IMG/VR virus record: IMGVR_UViG_3300032312_001958
Length of the DNA: 64,000 nucleotides
Source: a virus
Lineage: Duplodnaviria > Caudoviricetes
Direction: 5' to 3' (one strand)
Both the position numbers and the translations under genes were made by a program. How positions within the stretch are numbered: the stretch's first letter is position 1; every line of letters begins with the position of its first letter. Positions 8,420 through 55,787 of this stretch are shown one piece after another. The notes beneath the pieces are model-generated. The model had not been told where the DNA came from. It did not search any database and saw nothing but the letters and a program-made list of their open reading frames with translations.

Positions 8420-9284
8420 AGGAAAAGATAGAATATTAAAGTTAATTGACGAGTTAGGTCTTTGGAATGCTAAAGAAGCTTTGGGTATTTCATTAACCAA
8501 AATTGTTAAATTAGTTGGGCTAAAGATTCATCCAAATTTGGCTGGCGAAATAATAATTGAAGGTATTAATAATGAAACCCTACCAACAGAATATAAAGAA
8601 TTTAAGATTTCAACAAATTCTGATGGCGTTGTTTATTGGGAAGGTAAATTTTATGGGGACCACTTCTTAGCTGATATGGTTGAAACAATATGGATAATGG
8701 CAACACCATTTTGGGATGGTGAAAGTTACACTCCAGTCGAAACTGATTGGTATTCGTTGGTTGATGGGTCTAAAAATACACTTATTGCTGAAATTGAAGG
8801 AGGTGGTGATTACTTTGAAACAATTAGTGATAAGGTTTTTTTTGATAGTGTAGAAGAGTTACATAATTGGTATAATGAGTATTATTTACCACGTGTGTAT
8901 AAAATAATTATGAATAACTTCTTACTTAGTCTACGACAAGATATGGATGATAGGTTAGATGACAATATGGGTTATAGTCCTATGAGAGAAAGTATTGCTA
9001 TAGTATTAAGAGAAGAAAGTGAAGGTGATGGTAATGTAGAAAAATTTATAAAAAAAGCCACAAATATAATCAATACAATTAAATTTCCTGCGGTTAAACG
9101 TATTGATTTTGATTACGACGAAATGATGGATGGATATCATGTTAATATATTTTTTGATAGACAATTTGCTATAGATAATCCCAAAAATTTTAATAAAGTA
9201 AAACAAAAAGCAGTCCAAGAAATTGGTTCAACCGTTACAAGTTATTTCCCGTTTAAATTTTTATTTTATTTGCATTACGAATAG
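8412..9284 (+). CDS. hypothetical two-domain protein
   Basis: 290 aa; internal MRESIAIVLREE leader-like junction. Confidence 0.75.
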   Translation: MSKGKDRILKLIDELGLWNAKEALGISLTKIVKLVGLKIHPNLAGEIIIEGINNETLPTEYKEFKISTNSDGVVYWEGKFYGDHFLADMVETIWIMATPFWDGESYTPVETDWYSLVDGSKNTLIAEIEGGGDYFETISDKVFFDSVEELHNWYNEYYLPRVYKIIMNNFLLSLRQDMDDRLDDNMGYSPMRESIAIVLREESEGDGNVEKFIKKATNIINTIKFPAVKRIDFDYDEMMDGYHVNIFFDRQFAIDNPKNFNKVKQKAVQEIGSTVTSYFPFKFLFYLHYE

Positions 9285-9645
9285 TAATTACTTACTATCC
9301 AATATCTCTTCCACCAATTCATCTCCTCTCCACACACCTTCAATTTTTGTAAATACTTTATGATTTAATACCTCTTCCACCTTTTGTTCTCCCCACGTAC
9401 ATGCAATTGGGGTTGTTTCTACCTTATGATTTAATACCTCTTCCACCACGATTAATTCGGTTGAAGAAAACGTATTAGTTGTTTCTACCTTATGATTTAA
9501 TACCTCTTCCACCTGAACTTCTCAGTTCCAATCTCAGGCAGTGGTTGTTTCTACCTTATGATTTAATACCTCTTCCACCCTTTTCTTGTGTTTTCTGTCC
9601 AAAGGCAGAGTTATGGGTACCTTACTATTTAAGACCTCTTCCACC
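9280..9645. CRISPR. orphan CRISPR-like array, 36-bp repeat GTTGTTTCTACCTTATGATTTAATACCTCTTCCACC with five 30-bp spacers, in frame with the 9534-9878 gene
   Basis: Identical repeats at 9412-9447, 9478-9513, 9544-9579; degenerate copies at 9280-9315, 9346-9381, 9610-9645; exact 66-bp period; no cas genes seen. The architecture is certain, CRISPR function is not. Confidence 0.6.
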
Positions 9646-9878
9646 CAAGAAGCAAGTATTGGCTCAAAGTCTTCACGTTCCAAAGAGAAAATCTCAAAGA
9701 AATTTGGAAAAAAACCATATCTCCAATACAATGCTCCACTATTCTCAAAATCAAAATACCAATACTTTTCTTCTCTATCAATGAACCATATGGAGCCATT
9801 GTATGGGATTATCTCCGCATTACCTAACTCTTTGTATAGACGTTTAAATATAATTTGTTTTAACTTATCTGAAACCAT
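9534..9878 (-). CDS. small protein whose 3' end runs into the repeat-spacer array
   Basis: 114 aa, related to the IFKYL..FFS..WVE family; TTTG..TATCTTTG promoter 4 nt before ATG. Confidence 0.8.
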   Translation of the reverse strand: MVSDKLKQIIFKRLYKELGNAEIIPYNGSIWFIDREEKYWYFDFENSGALYWRYGFFPNFFEIFSLEREDFEPILASWVEEVLNSKVPITLPLDRKHKKRVEEVLNHKVETTTA

Positions 9879-9914
9879 AGGACAAAGATAAGATAAAAAT
9901 TGTGGAACTACAAA

Positions 9915-10256
9915 TTAATATTCAGATGGTATTTTTAATGACGATTTGAGTTGCATTATCTTGTTGGACATTTGACCCTCCAAGTTTAGGGTTTTCTTAA
10001 CCCATTGTCCAACAACTCTGGTAGATTGATAATCGTTAAGAGAAAAGAAGGAAGAAACTTCTTTAATTAAATCCATATAAATAAAACACAATTCATTATT
10101 GGCGTGATTACCACCATATTTAATCTGAGCAAACTCATCATCGTTAGGGTGTTTAAAGTATGTACTGGCACCAATCTTAGATATTTCAAAATCTTGGCTA
10201 TTAAGATACTTGAATACGGATTTATCTAGTTGTGATTCGGTGATTAGGTATTTCAT
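9915..10256 (-). CDS. MKYLITESQ paralogue family protein
   Basis: VFKYLNSQDF..EVSSFFS..QWVKKTL. Confidence 0.85.
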   Translation of the reverse strand: MKYLITESQLDKSVFKYLNSQDFEISKIGASTYFKHPNDDEFAQIKYGGNHANNELCFIYMDLIKEVSSFFSLNDYQSTRVVGQWVKKTLNLEGQMSNKIMQLKSSLKIPSEY

Positions 10257-10624
10257 GAGAATGTTACACTTTTAACTGATTTAACTTCGTAGTCGGGGAA
10301 GTATTCATTAAATACATCTGACAGAATGAAATCGCTGTGAACCCACCAAATTGGATGGGGAAATGCCTCACCATATATATTATCAAGTTGTCTACTATAA
10401 TATAATTCACCACTTTGTTTTATATACATCATCATTAGTTTTCCTTCAGAGTCGAATAAACCAATTCTAAATTCACTTTCATCATATGAATCAACCAAAT
10501 TTACAAAATAAGGAACAAACTTATGTTTAAGTTTCTCATACTTTTCAGCGTACTCAATATTTCTCCAAGTTCTTTCAAGCTCGGTAATTAACTTATATTG
10601 TGATTCTGTTATAATGTATTTCAT
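10253..10624 (-). CDS. MKYIITESQ-leader protein
   Basis: Leader; TATTTAT upstream. Confidence 0.8.
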   Translation of the reverse strand: MKYIITESQYKLITELERTWRNIEYAEKYEKLKHKFVPYFVNLVDSYDESEFRIGLFDSEGKLMMMYIKQSGELYYSRQLDNIYGEAFPHPIWWVHSDFILSDVFNEYFPDYEVKSVKSVTFS

Positions 10625-10647
10625 GTAGTGATAAATATCTTATTATT

Positions 10648-11013
10648 TTACTTAACTATTAATCTGTAATACATGTCACCATTTCCAGCATCATTAACAT
10701 CATCATAATTAATTTTAAGATTTAGTTTATCACCGACCCAATCCGCAATAACTTTTAATAATTTAGATTTAGGTATAGGTAAAAATAAAGTTACCAACTC
10801 AATTAATTCACGACTAACATATAACCAATCTCTAACTTCACCAAAAGCATTTAAGTGATAGACACTTATTTGTGCGGTATCATCTGATTCGTTATTTAAA
10901 AAATAAATGTAATTGTTAAATTTTTTACCATTATCCATTATAATAAAATTATGACTGTCCAAATATTTTTGTACAACATTTTCTAATTTAGATTCTGTGA
11001 TAATGTATTTCAT
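10648..11013 (-). CDS. MKYIITESK paralogue family protein
   Basis: VQKYLDSHNF..IYFLNNE..DWVGDKL. Confidence 0.85.
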   Translation of the reverse strand: MKYIITESKLENVVQKYLDSHNFIIMDNGKKFNNYIYFLNNESDDTAQISVYHLNAFGEVRDWLYVSRELIELVTLFLPIPKSKLLKVIADWVGDKLNLKINYDDVNDAGNGDMYYRLIVK

Positions 11014-11366
11014 ATGTATAAATCAAGGAATTGTTCTAATGTTATTCCAAGAGCGGAGATACCCAAAAGGCTCATAAAGTTGGACTCTTCATACCCATCA
11101 CCTCTATTATCAAGAATCAATGGGTGGTTTGAACTATAATTCATTTGATATAATACCTTATGATTATCATCCAATTCTATAAGATACATCGGACCATAGT
11201 TATCACCTAATTGTCTTCTTCGTAAACCATCGTAAGTAAAATAGAAATCAAAATCATTCAGTATTTTATATATGCTCGGGTCAAGCTCCACACGACCTGT
11301 GAGGTCAATATTAAACTTGTTTTTAATAAATGTTTTTAATTTAGATTCAGTGATTAATAGTTTCAT
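11010..11366 (-). CDS. MKLLITESK-leader protein
   Basis: Start reassigned to the leader Met. Confidence 0.75.
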   Translation of the reverse strand: MKLLITESKLKTFIKNKFNIDLTGRVELDPSIYKILNDFDFYFTYDGLRRRQLGDNYGPMYLIELDDNHKVLYQMNYSSNHPLILDNRGDGYEESNFMSLLGISALGITLEQFLDLYI

Positions 11367-11379
11367 GTTATTATAAATA

Positions 11380-11712
11380 TTAATTAGACGGAATCTGCAT
11401 CCACTCAGATTTAATATTATTGGCCCACAAACAATAATCAATATCTACCTTTAAGGTCTCCCCAACCCATCTACCGATAGCTTCCCTAGCATCATAACCT
11501 TGCATAGAAAAGAAAGAAGCAACCTCACCAATTAATCCTGTATATATGACACATTTACTATCCTTATTAAAATATCTAATCTGTGCATATTCATCACCTT
11601 CTGAATTTACAAAGTATACACCATCACCTTTCTTAATCTGAATGAAGTCCTGATTATCCAAGTATTTAAAAATTAATTTGTCAAATTGTGATTCGGTGAT
11701 TAATACTTTCAT
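11380..11712 (-). CDS. MKVLITESQ paralogue family protein
   Basis: IFKYLDNQDFIQI..FVNSEGDEYAQIRY..RWVGETL; start reassigned. Confidence 0.85.
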   Translation of the reverse strand: MKVLITESQFDKLIFKYLDNQDFIQIKKGDGVYFVNSEGDEYAQIRYFNKDSKCVIYTGLIGEVASFFSMQGYDAREAIGRWVGETLKVDIDYCLWANNIKSEWMQIPSN

Positions 11713-11744
11713 ATAATAGTAAATATAATTATATTTATAATAAT

Positions 11745-12107
11745 ATGAACTTAGAAAAGACAATAAGAAGAATATTAAAGGAAGAGTCCAAAAAAGACAG
11801 GTTGATTGATAGATATATAACATCATTAATTAATCCTAGTAGTGGTAAATACAATCGTGATGATAAAAGGTTTGAGATGAGTGACAATGATGATAACCTA
11901 AATGCGATTATATTCTTTAACCAACAAGATGACGTGATGATGGTAATGATTGATGATAGTATATGGGAACAAGTATCCGATATGTTTTCAATAGATGATT
12001 GGAATGAGATGAATGATTATTTAGTTAAATGGTTCCAAGATAATTTTGACGGGTTAGAGGATTTATCTGAAGTAATTACATTTGATAACGCTGAATTTGC
12101 TTACTAA
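11745..12107 (+). CDS. protein with MNLEKTIRRILKEE leader
   Basis: Leader; KWFQDNF motif. Confidence 0.8.
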   Translation: MNLEKTIRRILKEESKKDRLIDRYITSLINPSSGKYNRDDKRFEMSDNDDNLNAIIFFNQQDDVMMVMIDDSIWEQVSDMFSIDDWNEMNDYLVKWFQDNFDGLEDLSEVITFDNAEFAY

Positions 12108-12108
12108 T

Positions 12109-12729
12109 ATGAACCTACAAGAAACAATAAGAAGAGTACTAAGAGAAGAATTATCACCAAGGATAAGAAGAAGACTTTCTATTGATGAAATGGAAAATGA
12201 GTTTCTTGAATCTTTTGAAGGTGCTTATCGTCTTACAAAAGACAGAAAGGTTTTAAGTTCACATTTTTTAGATGTGTTACTCTACACAACAATAACCTTT
12301 ATGATGGATAGTGTTCATTGGAGATTTGTTAGCACATTACCTGAAGATGAATTTTGGTATGATGATATACATAAAGAATTAGAAAATCATTATAGAGACA
12401 GAATTATACAGATGTATAATGAAAGGAAGGGAATTAAAGAATCAATATTAAGGGAAGAAACTGAGTTACCTGCTTATATTAGAAGAAGGGTGACCTCTGA
12501 TGACCTTGAGTGGTTGATTAGGGATGTTAAAATTTCTTTAAGTAGGGGAAAGAATAAAAGTGATGCCTTATATGATGCAATTCAAAATCTTATTTCGTCA
12601 AACAGAGAACTGTTAAAGGATTATGATATGTTCCAAGACGTGTATGCATTTGACGAACCACTAATTAGATATATCAATTCAAAATTGGACGAGGAACCGT
12701 TAAATGAATCTACATGTGGAAGATTATAA
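12109..12729 (+). CDS. two-domain protein with MNLQETIRRVLREE leader
   Basis: Start reassigned; second unit begins IKESILREE..YIRRR. Confidence 0.8.
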   Translation: MNLQETIRRVLREELSPRIRRRLSIDEMENEFLESFEGAYRLTKDRKVLSSHFLDVLLYTTITFMMDSVHWRFVSTLPEDEFWYDDIHKELENHYRDRIIQMYNERKGIKESILREETELPAYIRRRVTSDDLEWLIRDVKISLSRGKNKSDALYDAIQNLISSNRELLKDYDMFQDVYAFDEPLIRYINSKLDEEPLNESTCGRL

Positions 12730-12749
12730 TGGGGAGTGGAAAATAATTA

Positions 12750-13058
12750 CTATCTAATTATAACTTCTTTAACTCTTCTATCCAAAGTATTCTCAACCCA
12801 TCTAGCAATAACATATTTAGAACTATTAAATTCTATAGAGAAGAAATCTTTAATCTCATCAATTAACTCAAAACTTATTACACACTCACCACTTCTAAAG
12901 TATTCGATTAATGAGTCGATTAATGAGTCGATATATTCACCACCTTCAGAATTGGCGAAGTATATTGCGTTTCCTCTTTTAATCTGAATAAAGTCCTGAT
13001 TGTCAAGATACTTAAAGATTATTCTATCTATTTGCGATTCTGTTATAAGGTATTTCAT
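12750..13058 (-). CDS. MKYLITESQ paralogue family protein
   Basis: IFKYLDNQDFIQI..RWVENTL; 12-bp tandem duplication at 12904-12927. Confidence 0.85.
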   Translation of the reverse strand: MKYLITESQIDRIIFKYLDNQDFIQIKRGNAIYFANSEGGEYIDSLIDSLIEYFRSGECVISFELIDEIKDFFSIEFNSSKYVIARWVENTLDRRVKEVIIR

Positions 13059-13074
13059 TATTGATAAATATTAG

Positions 13075-13485
13075 TTAACAGTCACCTGTATTATGGACCT
13101 CAATATTATGACCTTTAATTAAACCGCCACCGAACTGATATAATGCCTTAGAAATAACATCTCTATACATACTTCTAAGACCTTCGTCAAACATATACCT
13201 TCCCTCATTCTCAGGAGCTGGCTTAGGTGTATAGACAACCAAATCCATAGAGTACTGAGTGGGTATGATAATATATTTACAATATATCAAAAGTGGGGAA
13301 ATATCATTTTTAAATATAGTTTTTGTTAGAAAGATAATATCTTCCTTAGTTCCCTTAATACCCATCTCATTAATAATCTCTTTAGGCGTCCTACTTGTCA
13401 TTTCACATAGTGCACGCATTCCAAATTTCTCTAATAAAGGTTTAAGGTTTTTATTACTTTGATTTTCGGTGATTATTACTTTCAT
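13075..13485 (-). CDS. MKVIITENQ-leader protein
   Basis: Leader. Confidence 0.75.
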   Translation of the reverse strand: MKVIITENQSNKNLKPLLEKFGMRALCEMTSRTPKEIINEMGIKGTKEDIIFLTKTIFKNDISPLLIYCKYIIIPTQYSMDLVVYTPKPAPENEGRYMFDEGLRSMYRDVISKALYQFGGGLIKGHNIEVHNTGDC

Positions 13486-13493
13486 ATGATATA

Positions 13494-13823
13494 TTAGTTA
13501 TTAACTCTTATCCATACATTCGGTGCGGGTTTAGCCTCACGGGTTTGTACAACTATCATTTTGAGGGTATCCTCGACCCATCTACTGATAAGTTTAATGG
13601 ACTCGGAGATACTCAAAGAAAAGAAAGAAGACACTTCATTAATTAAACTTACGACAATGTAACACCAACCACTAATTTTATCATATCTAATCTCAGAGTA
13701 TTCATCATCTTCTGAATTAACAAAAAATATAGTTGCACCCTTTCTAATCTGAACAAAATCCTGATTGTCCAAATATTTAAAGATTGCTCTGTCTAATTGT
13801 GATTCTGATATTAAGTATTTCAT
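13494..13823 (-). CDS. MKYLISESQ paralogue family protein
   Basis: IFKYLDNQDFVQI..EVSSFFS..RWVEDTL. Confidence 0.85.
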   Translation of the reverse strand: MKYLISESQLDRAIFKYLDNQDFVQIRKGATIFFVNSEDDEYSEIRYDKISGWCYIVVSLINEVSSFFSLSISESIKLISRWVEDTLKMIVVQTREAKPAPNVWIRVNN

Positions 13824-14201: not shown

Positions 14202-15590
14202 ATGAAAAACTTTACGGTATCCCAACTAATGGAAATGGGGGCACAATTTCAGAAAGACAGAAAAATCAACATATCTACTGACACAAAAACGGTACGTGAA
14301 TTATATGAGTTATACTTAGATGGTAAACTTGTATTACAGGATTGGTTTCAGCGTGGGTTTCACTGGGACCACAATAAGAAAGTAATGTTAATACATACAT
14401 TACTTAATACACCGAAACTTCTTACGGAGGTTGTGTTTTTCATTGATAATGATGGTAAATACTATGTTGCCGATGGTCAACAAAGACTTACATCTATTTT
14501 TAATTTTTTGGATGGTCACTACGATTATAATGGGGCGGATTTGGAACCGAGCACATTATTCTATGGTGTCAAATATGGTACCAAGGACTTTCAAAAGTGT
14601 TCAGACAAATTAAAGAATACTCCGATTAAAACGACGGAGATTGATAACTATGGTCTTGATGGGGATAAGATTAATATTCTAAAGTCATATGTCTTTATGA
14701 AATGGAATAATGGTTCAAACCTTAACGCAGCCGAGTTACGTGGAGGATTATATAGTACGGTGAATGCATTAATTAAACCATTGGTCGATGGGATGGATGA
14801 TAATACAAAACAAGCTCTAATCTTATCAAAGAAGTTTGGACGGAATAGAATCAATGAATTATATGAGAGATTGATATATCATATGGTTCAAAAAGATTTG
14901 GTTAGGGACCCGACACCGAAACAGTTGTTAAGTATTCACGGGGATAAAGAAATTGACAGTGACCAACAAAACATTCTAAGAGTATTAAATACTGTTACAT
15001 CGGCGGTTGTGACATATAGAAACACACATAAGACTTACCAAGCGGGTACAACGTCGTTACGTGATGTTATAGTGGCGTCAACCAAGTTAAGAAAGATGGG
15101 CAGACTTGTAACATTAGAAGATATGAAGAATTATATTATATCTACCATGTTAAAACTAAACACCGTATTTTCTCAGAACAATAAGTTCATTGTATATCAA
15201 AAGGCGGATATGGATAATATGAATGAGGAAATAAATAAAGAATGGTACCAAACATACTTTAGATTCTTCGGACGTGGACAAGATGGTCATACAATAAGAA
15301 GAGTTAAGTTCCTTGTAGATAATATGGATAAATTTGTAGATGTTATACAAAGAGATAAGATTCGTAACTTTCCACAAGATATGCAAATACGTGTACTGAA
15401 TAATCAGGATAACAAATGTACTCTATGTGGTGAACATCTTACTATGTCAGATGCCGAAGCTGACCATATAGTAGAACACTCTAAAGGAGGACTAACAGAA
15501 GAAAGTAATCTACAGATGTTACACAAAGAATGTCATAAAGAAAAGACACGTGGATTTAATACAAAGTTAGACTTATTTAATGTGGTATAA
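14202..15590 (+). CDS. DUF262 (ParB-like) plus C-terminal HNH endonuclease, GmrSD-like
   Basis: FQRGFHW, VADGQQRLTSI, CTLCG..DHIVEHSKGG..NLQMLHKECH. Confidence 0.8.
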   Translation: MKNFTVSQLMEMGAQFQKDRKINISTDTKTVRELYELYLDGKLVLQDWFQRGFHWDHNKKVMLIHTLLNTPKLLTEVVFFIDNDGKYYVADGQQRLTSIFNFLDGHYDYNGADLEPSTLFYGVKYGTKDFQKCSDKLKNTPIKTTEIDNYGLDGDKINILKSYVFMKWNNGSNLNAAELRGGLYSTVNALIKPLVDGMDDNTKQALILSKKFGRNRINELYERLIYHMVQKDLVRDPTPKQLLSIHGDKEIDSDQQNILRVLNTVTSAVVTYRNTHKTYQAGTTSLRDVIVASTKLRKMGRLVTLEDMKNYIISTMLKLNTVFSQNNKFIVYQKADMDNMNEEINKEWYQTYFRFFGRGQDGHTIRRVKFLVDNMDKFVDVIQRDKIRNFPQDMQIRVLNNQDNKCTLCGEHLTMSDAEADHIVEHSKGGLTEESNLQMLHKECHKEKTRGFNTKLDLFNVV

Positions 15591-16371: not shown

Positions 16372-16641
16372 ATGAAGAAGAAAGATATCAACAAAAATGT
16401 GGATGAGATATTAAGGTCCCTAAGGGTCCTTGTGGATGATGTGGGGGACTTCAAGGTGGTACAGTTGTATCACAATGGTGTTAAGGTGGGGAAGATGGAG
16501 TACATGATATCATCTACCCCATACCAAGGGGACATTAAACAGTTAACAAGTTATAAACTTGAGGAACCTTTCATGGAGTTGTTCGAGGGTGTTGAGAACC
16601 CCATTAAGATTCTTAACTCATTTGGTTCAATGTACGTTTAA
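16372..16641 (+). CDS. hypothetical protein
   Basis: 89-aa ATG ORF. Confidence 0.55.
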   Translation: MKKKDINKNVDEILRSLRVLVDDVGDFKVVQLYHNGVKVGKMEYMISSTPYQGDIKQLTSYKLEEPFMELFEGVENPIKILNSFGSMYV

Positions 16642-17014
16642 CATTTTTCCATACCACACTTTTATATTTTAGTTCATTCCCCCTTGCTTCAATCTCGAAT
16701 GGGGAATCGTGGTAACCATTTTTCTTTACGGATGATTCGTAGTTTCTTTTCAACCCTTTTTGAATGTGGTGAGTATATTCATGGATGACCGTTCTGATAA
16801 ACATCTCCATAGTACCACAGTTTAAGGGGTTGATTATAATGTTGTACTCATAGTCATATTGTCCATAACAACTACCTAACCTATTGTTAATTTTAAACTT
16901 GGGGACAGGTTTGTTTCCATGACCAAGAATTTCTCTTGTCACCTTAATGGTTTCAATCCCCACGGTTCTTAGTTGTCGGGTGGTGTATGTGTTAAGGTTA
17001 TCTTTGAGTCTCAT
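16613..17014 (-). CDS. HExxH zinc metallopeptidase-like (SprT-like) protein
   Basis: IHEYTHH and SPFEIEAR. Confidence 0.7.
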   Translation of the reverse strand: MRLKDNLNTYTTRQLRTVGIETIKVTREILGHGNKPVPKFKINNRLGSCYGQYDYEYNIIINPLNCGTMEMFIRTVIHEYTHHIQKGLKRNYESSVKKNGYHDSPFEIEARGNELKYKSVVWKNVKRTLNQMS

Positions 17015-40724: not shown

Positions 40725-41021
40725 ATGTTGTTTGACTTTGAAACATACATAAACTTATTAAAAAGTTTTGGTGAGGAAAAACTGACTGAGCAAGAATCAA
40801 CTCCCCCGCCTTCAGGTGGTGCATCAGGAGGAGGTTCTACACCTCCAGCGGCATACCCAACAGTTACTAAATGGGAGAGTGGTCTAACAAGAGGTAAAGC
40901 GAATCAAATTGCTAATACTAAATGGGAGAGTGGTCTAACAAGAGGTAAAGCAAATCCAGTTAATAATAAAGAAAAATGGACAACAGGAATTAAACGAGGA
41001 AAGGCAAATACGTTATTATGA
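40725..41021 (+). CDS. small protein with TKWESGLTRGKAN repeats
   Basis: Two identical 36-bp copies (40865-40900, 40916-40951) plus a degenerate third. Confidence 0.75.
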   Translation: MLFDFETYINLLKSFGEEKLTEQESTPPPSGGASGGGSTPPAAYPTVTKWESGLTRGKANQIANTKWESGLTRGKANPVNNKEKWTTGIKRGKANTLL

Positions 41022-44700: not shown

Positions 44701-44775
44701 TGGTACCCCCGTCTGGACTCGAACCAGAAATAACTGCTTAGAAGGCAGTGGGTATATCCCTTTACCTACAGGGGC
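44701..44775 (-). tRNA. tRNA-Arg(UCU)
   Basis: Cloverleaf GCCCCTG..ACTGC-CTTCTAA-GCAGT..TCTGG-TTCGAGT-CCAGA-CGGGGGT-A-CCA; TATATTTG upstream. Confidence 0.95.
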
Positions 44776-47814: not shown

Positions 47815-48207
47815 TGGTGGAGATGCCGGGGGTCGAACCCGGGTCCAAATAAGTAAGACATAAAACACTACACGTTTAGGTCATTGTTTTTCTAAACAAT
47901 CCGAAACTTCACAATTCCCTTATTTTATAGTGGTTCGGTTTACTGAGAACTAATCCTCCACTTCGTTTCTTTTTGGGTAGAAACCACACCACAACTACGA
48001 CTTCTGTTGCAAGGTTGTATGTCTGCCGACCCCTAGTAGGTTAATTCTAAATTAAGCTACAGATACTTCTTCAGTACGGATTAAACCGATTGTAGAAAGT
48101 TTGTTGATAACGTTGCCGTTTATAATTTGAATCAGTTTAACGGAGTTAACTCAGCTCCGACGTGCGTTTTATGGCGTATCATACCTGTCAAAGCCAAAAA
48201 CATCCCC
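47815..48207 (-). ncRNA. ssrA: tmRNA
   Basis: 5' GGGGATG..GAC, 3' CCGGGTTCGACCCCCGGCATCTCCACCA; tag ORF 48117-48052 GNVINKLSTIGLIRTEEVSVA*. Confidence 0.92.
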
Positions 48208-53435: not shown

Positions 53436-54617
53436 ATGAGTAAGTTAAAACCGGTTGGTAGCGAAAAATTAGAAGGGTTGGATAAAATCCAACGTATTAT
53501 GGAAATCGCTAGATATAAAGAGGTTATCCCACAATCAATAAATGAAGTATCATCTCGCGAATATCAAATAGTATTAGCAGATGGTGAAACGTATTCTATC
53601 GACAAAGAAAAATTGGGATACGTAATCAAGAAAAAAGTTAATGAAAGTTTTGATTATGTTGACCCTATGAAAAATAGGTCTCATTATAAATCTTATTCCC
53701 AAGCATTTAAAAAACTTAACTTGATTGCTCAAGAAGTTAACAGATTAACCGAGACTGAAGAAAATATTTCTTTATTTCATGAGGATAAAAAATATTTGTT
53801 AAAAACCCCAAAACCAAAAGTGGAGGACGAACCTCAAGGTCCAGCACCTATGGGGCCACCATCAGCAGTTGCGGAACCATCACCTGTACCGTCACCTGAA
53901 CCTGAAATGGGAGGAGAAGATATGGGACCTGAAATGGGTGGAGAAGATATGGGGTCTGAAATGGGAGGAGAAAACGGAGAAGATATGGGGTCTGAAATGG
54001 GAGGAGAAGAAACTTCTTTTAAGGACATTCAAAAATTGACAGGAAAACTATCTCAAAAAATTAGAGAAATTGAAGACGAACAACCTTTAACAGGTAAAGA
54101 TGTTAAGTACGTAATTAATTCAATTTTGTCGGCTTTAAATTTGGATGAGTTATCAAGCGATGATAAAGAAGAAATTGTATCTAGATTTGAAGAAGAGGAT
54201 GAGGATAATATGCCATCAGACGATATGGATTTTTCATCAAGTGAGGAAGATATGGGACCTGAAATGGGGTCTGAGGATGAGGAAGAACAGACTCAACCTG
54301 AAATGGGGGAATCGGCTCCGGTTCACAAATCGTCAATTGCGTCGGACAATTTTGAAATGTACAATATGAATGAATCTAAAATTGAAAACATTCTTAAAAG
54401 TTATTTCTTTGAGTCTAAAAATGAAAAACAATACAAAAAAAATAGATTTTCATATGTTACAGATTTTGCTGTGACAAAAAAACAAGCTAATGTTGCTAAA
54501 AATTTACTGGAGGCGGCACCAAGTTTACATTTTGTTGGTAGAACAACAAAGAAAAATTTAATATTTGAAAATAACGGACAACAAGTAAAAATTACTCCTA
54601 ACGGTAATATTTTATGA
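53436..54617 (+). CDS. acidic low-complexity head-region protein
   Basis: KPVGSEKL..IQRIMEIA; EMGGEDMG repeats; IQKLTGKLSQKIR. Confidence 0.75.
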   Translation: MSKLKPVGSEKLEGLDKIQRIMEIARYKEVIPQSINEVSSREYQIVLADGETYSIDKEKLGYVIKKKVNESFDYVDPMKNRSHYKSYSQAFKKLNLIAQEVNRLTETEENISLFHEDKKYLLKTPKPKVEDEPQGPAPMGPPSAVAEPSPVPSPEPEMGGEDMGPEMGGEDMGSEMGGENGEDMGSEMGGEETSFKDIQKLTGKLSQKIREIEDEQPLTGKDVKYVINSILSALNLDELSSDDKEEIVSRFEEEDEDNMPSDDMDFSSSEEDMGPEMGSEDEEEQTQPEMGESAPVHKSSIASDNFEMYNMNESKIENILKSYFFESKNEKQYKKNRFSYVTDFAVTKKQANVAKNLLEAAPSLHFVGRTTKKNLIFENNGQQVKITPNGNIL

Positions 54618-54995: not shown

Positions 54996-55787
54996 ATGAG
55001 CTTAGTCAACAAAAAACAAGTATTAACAAAAATGGGATTCAGTCCAAAAACATTGTCCCTTATGACTGAGTCTGAAATATCAAAATTATTCAAGACTTTC
55101 TTAATTGAAACAAAAAAAGAAAATAAAGAAGCAGTTCAGGTAACTAAAACTGTGTTGGATAAAAATAATCCTACGGACGTTAAAACTGCGAATTTTTGTT
55201 TACAAAATCCTTCAGACTCAAAATGTAAAAATGTTGAGATGAAAGAAGGTAAAAAAACAAAGAAAAAAAATCCATGGGCTATTTGTACTTCTGTAATGGG
55301 TGCTGAATTTGGTACGAAAGAAAGAAGTGATTGGACAAAAAAACAAATGGATAAATATGAAAAATGTGTGGTTGGTGTAAAAAAATCAATTAAAGAAGGA
55401 AAAAATCCTATAGAAGTTTTGTTAGAAGATAAATTTAGAGGTATTATTGTAGAAAATTTAAGACCAAAAATAACAAAATCTGATATAATCAAAATGATTT
55501 TTGAAAATGTAGAAATGGCTGACCCGGCAGTTAAACCAAAAACAAAACCTGGAGTTAAACCCGATACGGATTATGACCCATTCATATCACCTGACCCTGA
55601 TGACCAACCTGAAGCTAATACACCTGAACCAAAAACAAAACCAAAACCTGGTGTAAAACCTGATGTTGATTTTGACCCATTTATCTCTCCCGACCCAGAT
55701 GACCAACCTGAGGCAGGTGCTAGAGGTTTAGAGAGTTTTATGTCGGCAGTTAAAAAAATGGGAATGTTAAAAAAAGGTAAGAGATGA
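54996..55787 (+). CDS. hypothetical protein with duplicated Pro-rich motif
   Basis: NPWAICT; KPGVKPD..DPFISPDPDDQPEA twice. Confidence 0.75.
   Translation: MSLVNKKQVLTKMGFSPKTLSLMTESEISKLFKTFLIETKKENKEAVQVTKTVLDKNNPTDVKTANFCLQNPSDSKCKNVEMKEGKKTKKKNPWAICTSVMGAEFGTKERSDWTKKQMDKYEKCVVGVKKSIKEGKNPIEVLLEDKFRGIIVENLRPKITKSDIIKMIFENVEMADPAVKPKTKPGVKPDTDYDPFISPDPDDQPEANTPEPKTKPKPGVKPDVDFDPFISPDPDDQPEAGARGLESFMSAVKKMGMLKKGKR

Follow-up and report, generated by a model that had tools for sequence, protein, structure and literature searches.

Repeat-spacer 3′ ends in a family of small jumbo phage genes and their possible origin by CRISPR-adaptation-like insertion

Introduction

A cluster of small genes in the 64,000-nucleotide phage sequence IMGVR_UViG_3300032312_001958 (Caudoviricetes; the whole stretch is called the window below) raises the question of why proteins that are alike along most of their length end in unrelated peptides. 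The genes, located between positions 9534 and 13823, share a motif centred on a tryptophan (W-motif), which in most of them is followed by a slot of 9–10 unrelated residues; they adjoin an array of 36-nt repeats and 30-nt spacers, and the initial annotation of the window proposed that the process that built the array inserts or replaces one 30-nt cassette in each gene, generating scaffolds that display variable C-terminal peptides. The best overall explanation, which is considered probable, is that the genes form a superfamily with repeat-spacer 3′ ends, filled by an insertion process similar to the CRISPR adaptation step.

The window is AT-rich, with about 30% G+C. Relatives were reached through the repeat itself and are IMG/VR contigs of up to 294 kb; for five of them, of 133–241 kb, CheckV estimated a completeness of 45–82%. 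The source lineage is one of jumbo phages, known from metagenomes alone, and no relative was found among GenBank phages at either the DNA or the protein level.

A superfamily of small proteins with a repeat-encoded motif

Genes 9915, 10648, 11380, 12750 and 13494 are clear paralogues both by sequence and by hidden Markov model (HMM), as initially proposed, and an HMM built from the five recovers gene 9534, previously regarded as a distant member, with an E of 8e-6; for those of its orthologues that bear arrays, E ranges from 1e-9 to 1e-5. Comparison of the profile of 29 paralogues (A3) with that of 39 array proteins (A2) gave a match of 96% probability (E 3.9e-9, 90 columns), in which the W-motif WVEDTLKMIVVQT is paired with unit 1 of the array proteins, WVEEVLNHKVSTT; the alignment of the motif with the array repeat is thus borne out. 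The motif, slot and tail strings quoted earlier are all present in the window sequence: WVEEVLNSKVPIT followed by LPLDRKHKKR in 9534; WVEDTLKMIVVQT, REAKPAPNVW and IRVNN in 13494; WVGETLKVDIDYC, LWANNIKSEW and MQIPSN in 11380; WVKKTLNLEGQMS, NKIMQLKSS and LKIPSEY in 9915. Also as noted, 12750 has no such segment, its open reading frame (ORF) stopping directly after the W-motif (WVENTLDRRVKEVIIR and stop).

The 9534-type family is large: a word search retrieved at least 947 proteins, whose lengths vary in steps of 22 residues, and a profile search gave 508 clusters at 50% identity. No member found carries a name or a Pfam domain, and nothing passed the Pfam cut-off among ten family and neighbour proteins. 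As part of the explanation favoured above, the five paralogues and 9534 probably constitute one superfamily of small phage proteins, and their common plan would likewise be a compact α/β domain with the W-motif as its last conserved element, the motif being encoded by a 36-nt direct repeat of CRISPR type. This plan is exemplified by gene 13494 (13494–13823; as for the other array and family features of the window, on the minus strand), which was delimited from the ORF list, the family HMM and an AlphaFold2 (AF2) model; its 109 residues comprise an MKYLISESQ leader, the α/β domain, the W-motif, the slot and a tail.

Repeat-spacer-repeat units in the paralogues

In the paralogues the slot lies between two copies of the repeat. 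Across 43 distinct family genes, similarity of the downstream DNA to the start of the repeat peaks at offset +65, with 6.93/16 matches versus 4.39 ± 0.44 elsewhere (z about 5.8), which places the slot exactly at the spacer position, as had been claimed. The repeat-spacer-repeat anatomy, with its fixed offset, is found as fresh units in relatives, where the paralogue-type repeat has the form GTTG...ACAAC (written GTTGAGAATACCCTACAAATGAAGGT...ACAAC). At locus L041, two paralogues in tandem are almost the same in their 5′ parts and in the W-motif DNA, and have unrelated 29-nt slots. One of them repeats its W-motif DNA, GTTGAACATACCTTACAAATGGAGGTGAGATACAAC, past the 29-nt slot at 36 of 36 positions; this second copy is read one base out of phase, producing LNIPYKWR and a stop, beyond which come a further 30-nt spacer, which is untranslated, and part of a third repeat. 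A pattern scan yielded the fresh units of L068–L073: three identical repeats with spacers of 31 and 29 nt in L070, three 30-nt spacers in frame in L068, a 30-nt spacer with an internal stop in L069, and a 29-nt spacer followed by LRIPSN or LRIPYYN in L071–L073. Since spacer lengths are not always multiples of three and some units lie past a stop codon, the process acts on DNA and not on protein.

Two layouts are observed. The MKYLITESQ subfamily mostly has a fixed spacer of 29 nt; only one spacer is translated there, and the next repeat is out of frame, yielding an LKIP-like tail and a stop. Spacers of the 9534 subfamily measure 30 nt, and the 66-nt units stay in frame. The short tail shared by the paralogues is therefore real, but its origin is the second repeat read in another frame (TTG AAA ATA CC encoding LKIP). 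The proposal of one 30-nt cassette per paralogue was right in that the slot is flanked by two 36-nt repeat copies, but the slot is mostly 29 nt long and the units of the window are old. At L068 (10263–10496, strand complementary to the stored locus, in a contig of 293,850 bp) the paralogue-type repeat occurs as an in-frame array of three spacers (VENTLQMKVTNT plus 10 residues), with an apparent second-repeat tail (IPYK and stop) upstream of it, indicating that the layouts interconvert.

The translated array of the 9534 family

The array of the window extends from 9280 to 9645, with a period of 66 nt, corresponding to 22 codons. Three 36-nt repeats (9544–9579, 9478–9513 and 9412–9447) are identical, none being expected by chance, and degenerate copies (9610–9645, 9346–9381 and about 9280–9315) follow the same period. 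Gene 9534 (9534–9878) is an array-type member consisting of the N-domain and the first unit; its ORF is ended by two in-frame TGA codons in the second spacer (9514–9543, TTA-stop-DWN-stop-EVQ), and the array units left downstream of the stops form ORF 9288 (9288–9512), in the frame of 9534. A recoding of TGA was rejected, as TGA ends 14 of 62 long ORFs and read-through would add at most 19 residues; TGA being a normal stop in this phage, 9534 is truncated in the window.

The 24-nt core of the repeat was found in 14 viral contigs. Orthologues of 9534 in these contigs are single ORFs of 150–290 residues spanning whole arrays, with an N-domain of about 95 residues and 3–9 units of 22 residues (up to 13 units when more loci are included), and they often occur as 2–4 tandem genes. 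Each unit contains 12 constant and 10 unrelated residues. In the coding frame 198 of 199 distinct internal spacers are free of stops, the sole exception being the stop-bearing spacer of the window, whereas in each of the other five frames 52–123 spacers contain them; to judge from its reading frame, the array of this family is translated. Shared spacers display 20 synonymous and 22 nonsynonymous variable sites, compared to an expected synonymous share of 25% (omega about 0.38, p 0.0016), and this purifying selection indicates that the peptides matter as peptides.

In an AF2 model of a 9534-type protein, the N-domain was predicted at moderate confidence, with a predicted local distance difference test score (pLDDT) of 62–84, and the repeat region as disordered (pLDDT below 50), which leaves a solenoid or a display scaffold for the array unsupported. 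The array genes of L001–L059, N-domains included, have a third-position GC content (GC3) of 0.31–0.35, versus 0.21 in typical long ORFs of the window.

Spacer turnover

When spacers were compared at the DNA level, on either strand and with gaps allowed, each pair was either at least 24/30 identical, being the same spacer in orthologous arrays, or similar at chance level, and protein-level comparison was likewise all-or-chance. Amino acid use over 315 spacer segments is near random, with 4.1–4.2 bits per position, and the only biased position is the last one, adjoining the next repeat. Orthologous N-domains that are 96–99.6% identical in DNA are nevertheless followed by arrays that differ by whole units. 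The proximal units are the rarer ones, singletons representing 52% of N-proximal and 25% of distal units; the order of units is colinear in 128 of 129 pairs, and degeneration of the repeats increases toward the distal end of the array. Whole-unit turnover is fast relative to point mutation, with a polarity toward the gene body. A compositionally foreign nature of the spacers was also considered, and is weakened by the finding that their GC excess sits at codon positions 1 and 2.

State of the units in the window

The first repeats of the window paralogues are well kept, with 9–13 of 16 matches to the start of the fresh repeat. In 13494, the first repeat (13542–13577) encodes VEDTLKMIVVQT and matches the start of the fresh family repeat, GTTGAGAATACCCTAC, at 12/16; the GC-rich slot of 29 nt (13513–13541, REAKPAPNV-) is the same but for one residue in the L008/L009 orthologue, and a decayed second-repeat position (13494–13512), at offset +65, encodes WIRVNN and a stop. 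Gene 11380 (11380–11712) is similarly built, with its first repeat at 11431–11466, a 29-nt slot at 11402–11430 and a second-repeat position from 11401 (WMQIPSN and stop). The divergent paralogue 10648 (10648–11013) has its first repeat at 10702–10737 and a slot at about 10673–10701. The only detectable second repeat of the window belongs to 9915 (9915–10256; first repeat 9966–10001), where a 26-nt slot (9940–9965) precedes a copy at 9915–9939 (ATTAAAAATACCATCT... from 9939), which is read as LKIPSEY and a stop and has 10 of 16 matches (shuffle p 0.016). In 12750 (12750–13058) the repeat is present at 12762–12797 without any unit, the ORF ending 3 codons past it. The units of the window paralogues are old, fixed and decayed "fossils", and 12750 has none.

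The G+C content of 17/30 reported for 13512–13541 is correct, and the excess is general: compared to the bodies of the same genes, the slots have a mean z of +1.8 over 15 slot groups (p about 0.001) and are GC-rich in 13 of 15, while in 72 other ORFs of the window, used as a control, the corresponding C-terminal segment gave z = −0.18. Divergence of the tails, which the initial annotation had expected to be in sharp blocks and not gradual, depends on the scale: it is gradual among close orthologues, which at the time scale sampled is the pattern that the initial annotation had named as refuting its proposal, and fixed-length boundaries are apparent at the scale of the family.

The AF2 model of 13494 has a pLDDT of 91 and a predicted template modelling score (pTM) of 0.83; the tryptophan of the motif lies in the last helix (residues 72–87), which is followed by a strand (93–97) and then by the slot, ordered in the model (pLDDT 86–95). 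Together with the predicted disorder of the array region, this gives no support to the display scaffold suggested earlier. Searches with the model returned a best E of 0.23 by Foldseek against the PDB, a best Z of 4.1, at noise level, in a VIA-wide fold search, and viral hypothetical proteins only in the ESM Atlas; no known fold was matched, which is no evidence of a new one.

Possible origin of the units

A ruler-based integration of the kind used in CRISPR adaptation would put new spacers beside the gene-proximal repeat. The likeliest agent would be the host's Cas1-Cas2 working in trans, since no cas1 was detected in the phage contigs searched; selection would then retain the inserts that leave a usable protein and reading frame, and the outcome would be the rewriting of the last 10–17 residues of the proteins. 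Both phage repeats read GTTGT... on the strand in which base 36 faces the gene body, which is the end where the units vary. In its full form the proposal is tentative, and falls somewhat short of being probable: a CRISPR-adaptation-type integrase, probably that of the host acting during infection, would write 29–31 nt of DNA beside a repeat that also serves as the last conserved codons of phage protein genes, and giant lake phages would in this way keep rewriting the C-terminal peptides, either single tails or translated arrays, of possibly packaged and ejected proteins, thus diversifying proteins and not guide RNAs.

Several findings weigh against an origin by integration. The contigs of the five relatives in which no Cas_Cas1 was detected are only 45–82% complete. 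The searches for protospacers covered a handful of spacers: five array spacers had no match in 185,579 species genomes; three had matches in JGI metagenomes solely within arrays; three array spacers and two from the L041 mini-array had no non-self match in IMG/VR; and the L006 and L007 spacers had none in the genomes of relatives. The array-type repeat itself gave 0 matches in the 185,579 bacterial and archaeal species genomes, either as an exact 24-mer or as a pattern of its ends only. In the window, the second repeats of 13494 and 11380, at exactly +65, have 8/16 matches each, which alone is not significant, and 10648 shows no recognisable second repeat. Close orthologues retain the same slot, and the differences between them are point changes, as in REAKPAPNVWIRVNN of 13494 versus RGAKPAPNVWIRVNN of L008. 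In the arrays, at least one differing unit lies within the array and not at its proximal end (DFWNSEKDTL in L014), and the first repeat often differs from the second, in contrast to a fresh CRISPR duplication. Spacer GC3 (0.34) is near that of the N-domains of the same genes (0.31), and the spacers are thus not obviously foreign at silent sites; a gradient of amelioration was also sought, and spacer GC proved flat with array position (Spearman −0.10, p 0.36).

The same observations bear on the other explanations. Ordinary fast-evolving paralogues could have acquired their tails by point substitution, with no insertion, the LKIP-like tail being a conserved structural element from an ancient internal duplication. 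Such a history agrees with the shared slots of close orthologues, whose tail identity tracks body identity (r = 0.74), with the ordered slot of the AF2 model and with a significant second repeat in just one of four window genes; it is difficult to reconcile with fresh units in which 36/36 repeats surround unrelated spacers of 29–31 nt, some of them untranslated past a stop, with the sharpness of the +65 peak across the family, with a GC excess confined to the slot, and with the L041a and L041b genes, whose near-identical flanks and unrelated 29-nt slots come close to the same body and repeats with a different spacer. It is therefore regarded as unlikely. Alternatively, protein tandem repeats may have arisen by slippage or unequal crossing-over, an old population-wide pool of segments being reassorted through homologous recombination in the constant 36 nt, without an integrase. 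Translated arrays with variable peptides under purifying selection, the similar GC3 of spacers and N-domains, the internal unit difference, the lack of protospacers in the searches and a 22-residue unit fixed across subfamilies just 40–50% identical all speak for a recombining pool. However, no duplicated spacer and no pair of intermediate similarity was seen, amino acid use is near random, spacers of 29 and 31 nt break the frame, some units are untranslated and the repeat region is predicted to be disordered; moreover, the pool leaves the ultimate origin of hundreds of unrelated 30-mers without explanation, and is judged rather unlikely.

Finally, the units could be working phage CRISPR mini-arrays, whose CRISPR RNAs (crRNAs) load a host effector, Cas13b or Cas9, with the overlap with a reading frame being secondary. 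The geometry and the GTTG...CAAC ends, which are those of CRISPR repeats, the lack of cas genes in the five relatives searched, the units past a stop codon in L041 and L070, and the window repeats that are still exact downstream of the stops fit this possibility, which is nonetheless improbable, given that nearly all spacers are stop-free in one frame and under purifying selection, that the repeat matches no CRISPR-DR family of Rfam and, for the array type, no bacterial genome, that the repeat of the window no longer has the terminal 5-bp stem of the consensus, and that target searches were negative. A diversity-generating retroelement was rejected: no reverse transcriptase (RVT_1) was detected in the contigs of the five relatives, and the spacers are mutually unrelated and not A-mutated copies.

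Leader sequence and genomic neighbourhood

At least nine small ORFs of the window, belonging to different families, begin with MK[YVL][LI]ITE[SN]. In the 13494 model, residues 1–4 have a pLDDT below 50, and residue 7 is the first of the first helix. In 5/5 relatives a prohead protease of the gp21 type (Peptidase_S77) scored above the cut-off, and none was found in the 64-kb window. In phage T4, diverse internal proteins are targeted to the prohead by short N-terminal propeptides ending in (L/I)-x-E, which gp21 cleaves off (PMC9026906). The lineage studied here resembles T4 in having many unrelated small proteins with a short leader ending in I-x-E (MKYLITE), a gp21-type protease, detected in the relatives, and a hypervariable clustered gene family; both elements of T4-type capsid targeting, the leader ending in (L/I)-x-E and the gp21-family protease, are thus found, the latter in relatives. 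T4 internal proteins differ in having no repeat-spacer 3′ ends. By analogy, the family proteins may be packaged and ejected, with their variable tails.

Between 4050 and 14109, the DNA around the start codons of the leader-sharing ORFs is conserved at 63–85% (repeat families D2 and D3), suggesting leader-mediated shuffling. At L014 (7911–8606, plus strand) a paralogue continues in frame into a homologue of window gene 10253, whose leader is kept at the junction as an internal PITESQ, a possible protease site. The paralogue cluster is adjoined by a gene on the plus strand (14202–15590) for a protein of 462 residues that combines a DUF262-type GmrSD N-terminal domain with an HNH nuclease at the C-terminus; the T4 internal protein IPI inhibits GmrSD-type enzymes. 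Elsewhere in the window, ARAGORN predicted a putative tmRNA-like gene with the tag GNVINKLSTIGLIRTEEVSVA (47815–48207, minus strand) and called a tRNA-Arg(TCT) (44701–44775, minus strand), and an ORF at 16613–17014 (minus strand) has a weak match, below the cut-off, to SprT-like metallopeptidases (E 1e-3). Further tandem repeats, apparently coding and unrelated to the 36 + 30 array, are located at 53900–54008, 55533–55711 and 40865–40968, with periods of 27/36, 99 and 51 nt, respectively.

Relation to known systems and significance

CRISPR arrays that are compact or lack cas genes, and mini-arrays, have reportedly been described in huge phages and archaeal viruses, by Al-Shayeb et al. in 2020 and Medvedeva et al. 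in 2019. These are likewise virus-borne repeat-spacer arrays devoid of adaptation genes; they differ in being non-coding, with spacers that target other viruses or host genes, while here the frame is open in 198 of 199 spacers and single units form protein tails. Precursors of ribosomally synthesized and post-translationally modified peptides (RiPPs) with multiple cores, such as the cyanobactin precursor PatE, carry hypervariable core cassettes between conserved recognition sequences. The phage genes are similar in their sharp blocks of unrelated short peptides between flanks conserved even in DNA, but their flanks have CRISPR geometry, being 36-nt direct repeats; some of their units are untranslated, and no enzyme for processing was identified.

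Bacterial arrays offer a further close parallel. In the II-C and VI-B loci of Flavobacterium columnare, repeats are 36 bp long, with GTTGT common at the leader-distal end, new spacers are 28–32 bp, mostly 30, and the II-C Cas1-Cas2 acts in trans on an array lacking cas1, into which it inserts phage as well as host DNA (Hoikkala et al. 2021, PMC8092290). The phage arrays share with them the repeat length and the leader-distal GTTGT, spacers in that size range, polar variation, a degenerate terminal repeat and an array without its own cas1; unlike them, they have the repeat inside a protein gene, encoding its last conserved motif, translated spacers and no cas genes, and neither protospacers nor a matching host repeat were found in the genomes scanned. 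Several features that define a CRISPR are present, that is repeats of constant length with unique spacers of about 30 bp (36 + 30 in the arrays, 36 + 29/30/31 in the paralogue-type units), GTTGT at the leader-distal end, variation at the other end and a degenerate terminal repeat, while a cas1 in the same genome was not found in the five relatives' partial contigs. False CRISPRs are tandem repeats in coding genes, without spacer diversity (Zhang and Ye 2017, PMC5294841); the phage arrays have the same repeat-spacer look within an ORF, but this candidate was rejected, as their spacers resemble one another no more than by chance, unless the same spacer recurs in orthologous arrays. A full-text literature search retrieved no account of CRISPR-type arrays that are translated or of protein tails encoded by spacers.

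From a practical point of view, CRISPR finders will label such genes as arrays, and gene callers will label such arrays as genes. A single DNA layout explains the slot of the window genes, its GC excess and the common LKIP-like ending. If the proposed origin is true, the integration of repeat-spacer units generates protein diversity, in that the coding sequence of phage genes itself contains the integration site, and every insert becomes a new C-terminal peptide. This would be a new consequence of CRISPR adaptation on phage DNA and would represent a new route to targeted hypervariation in viruses, beside diversity-generating retroelements and cassette recombination.

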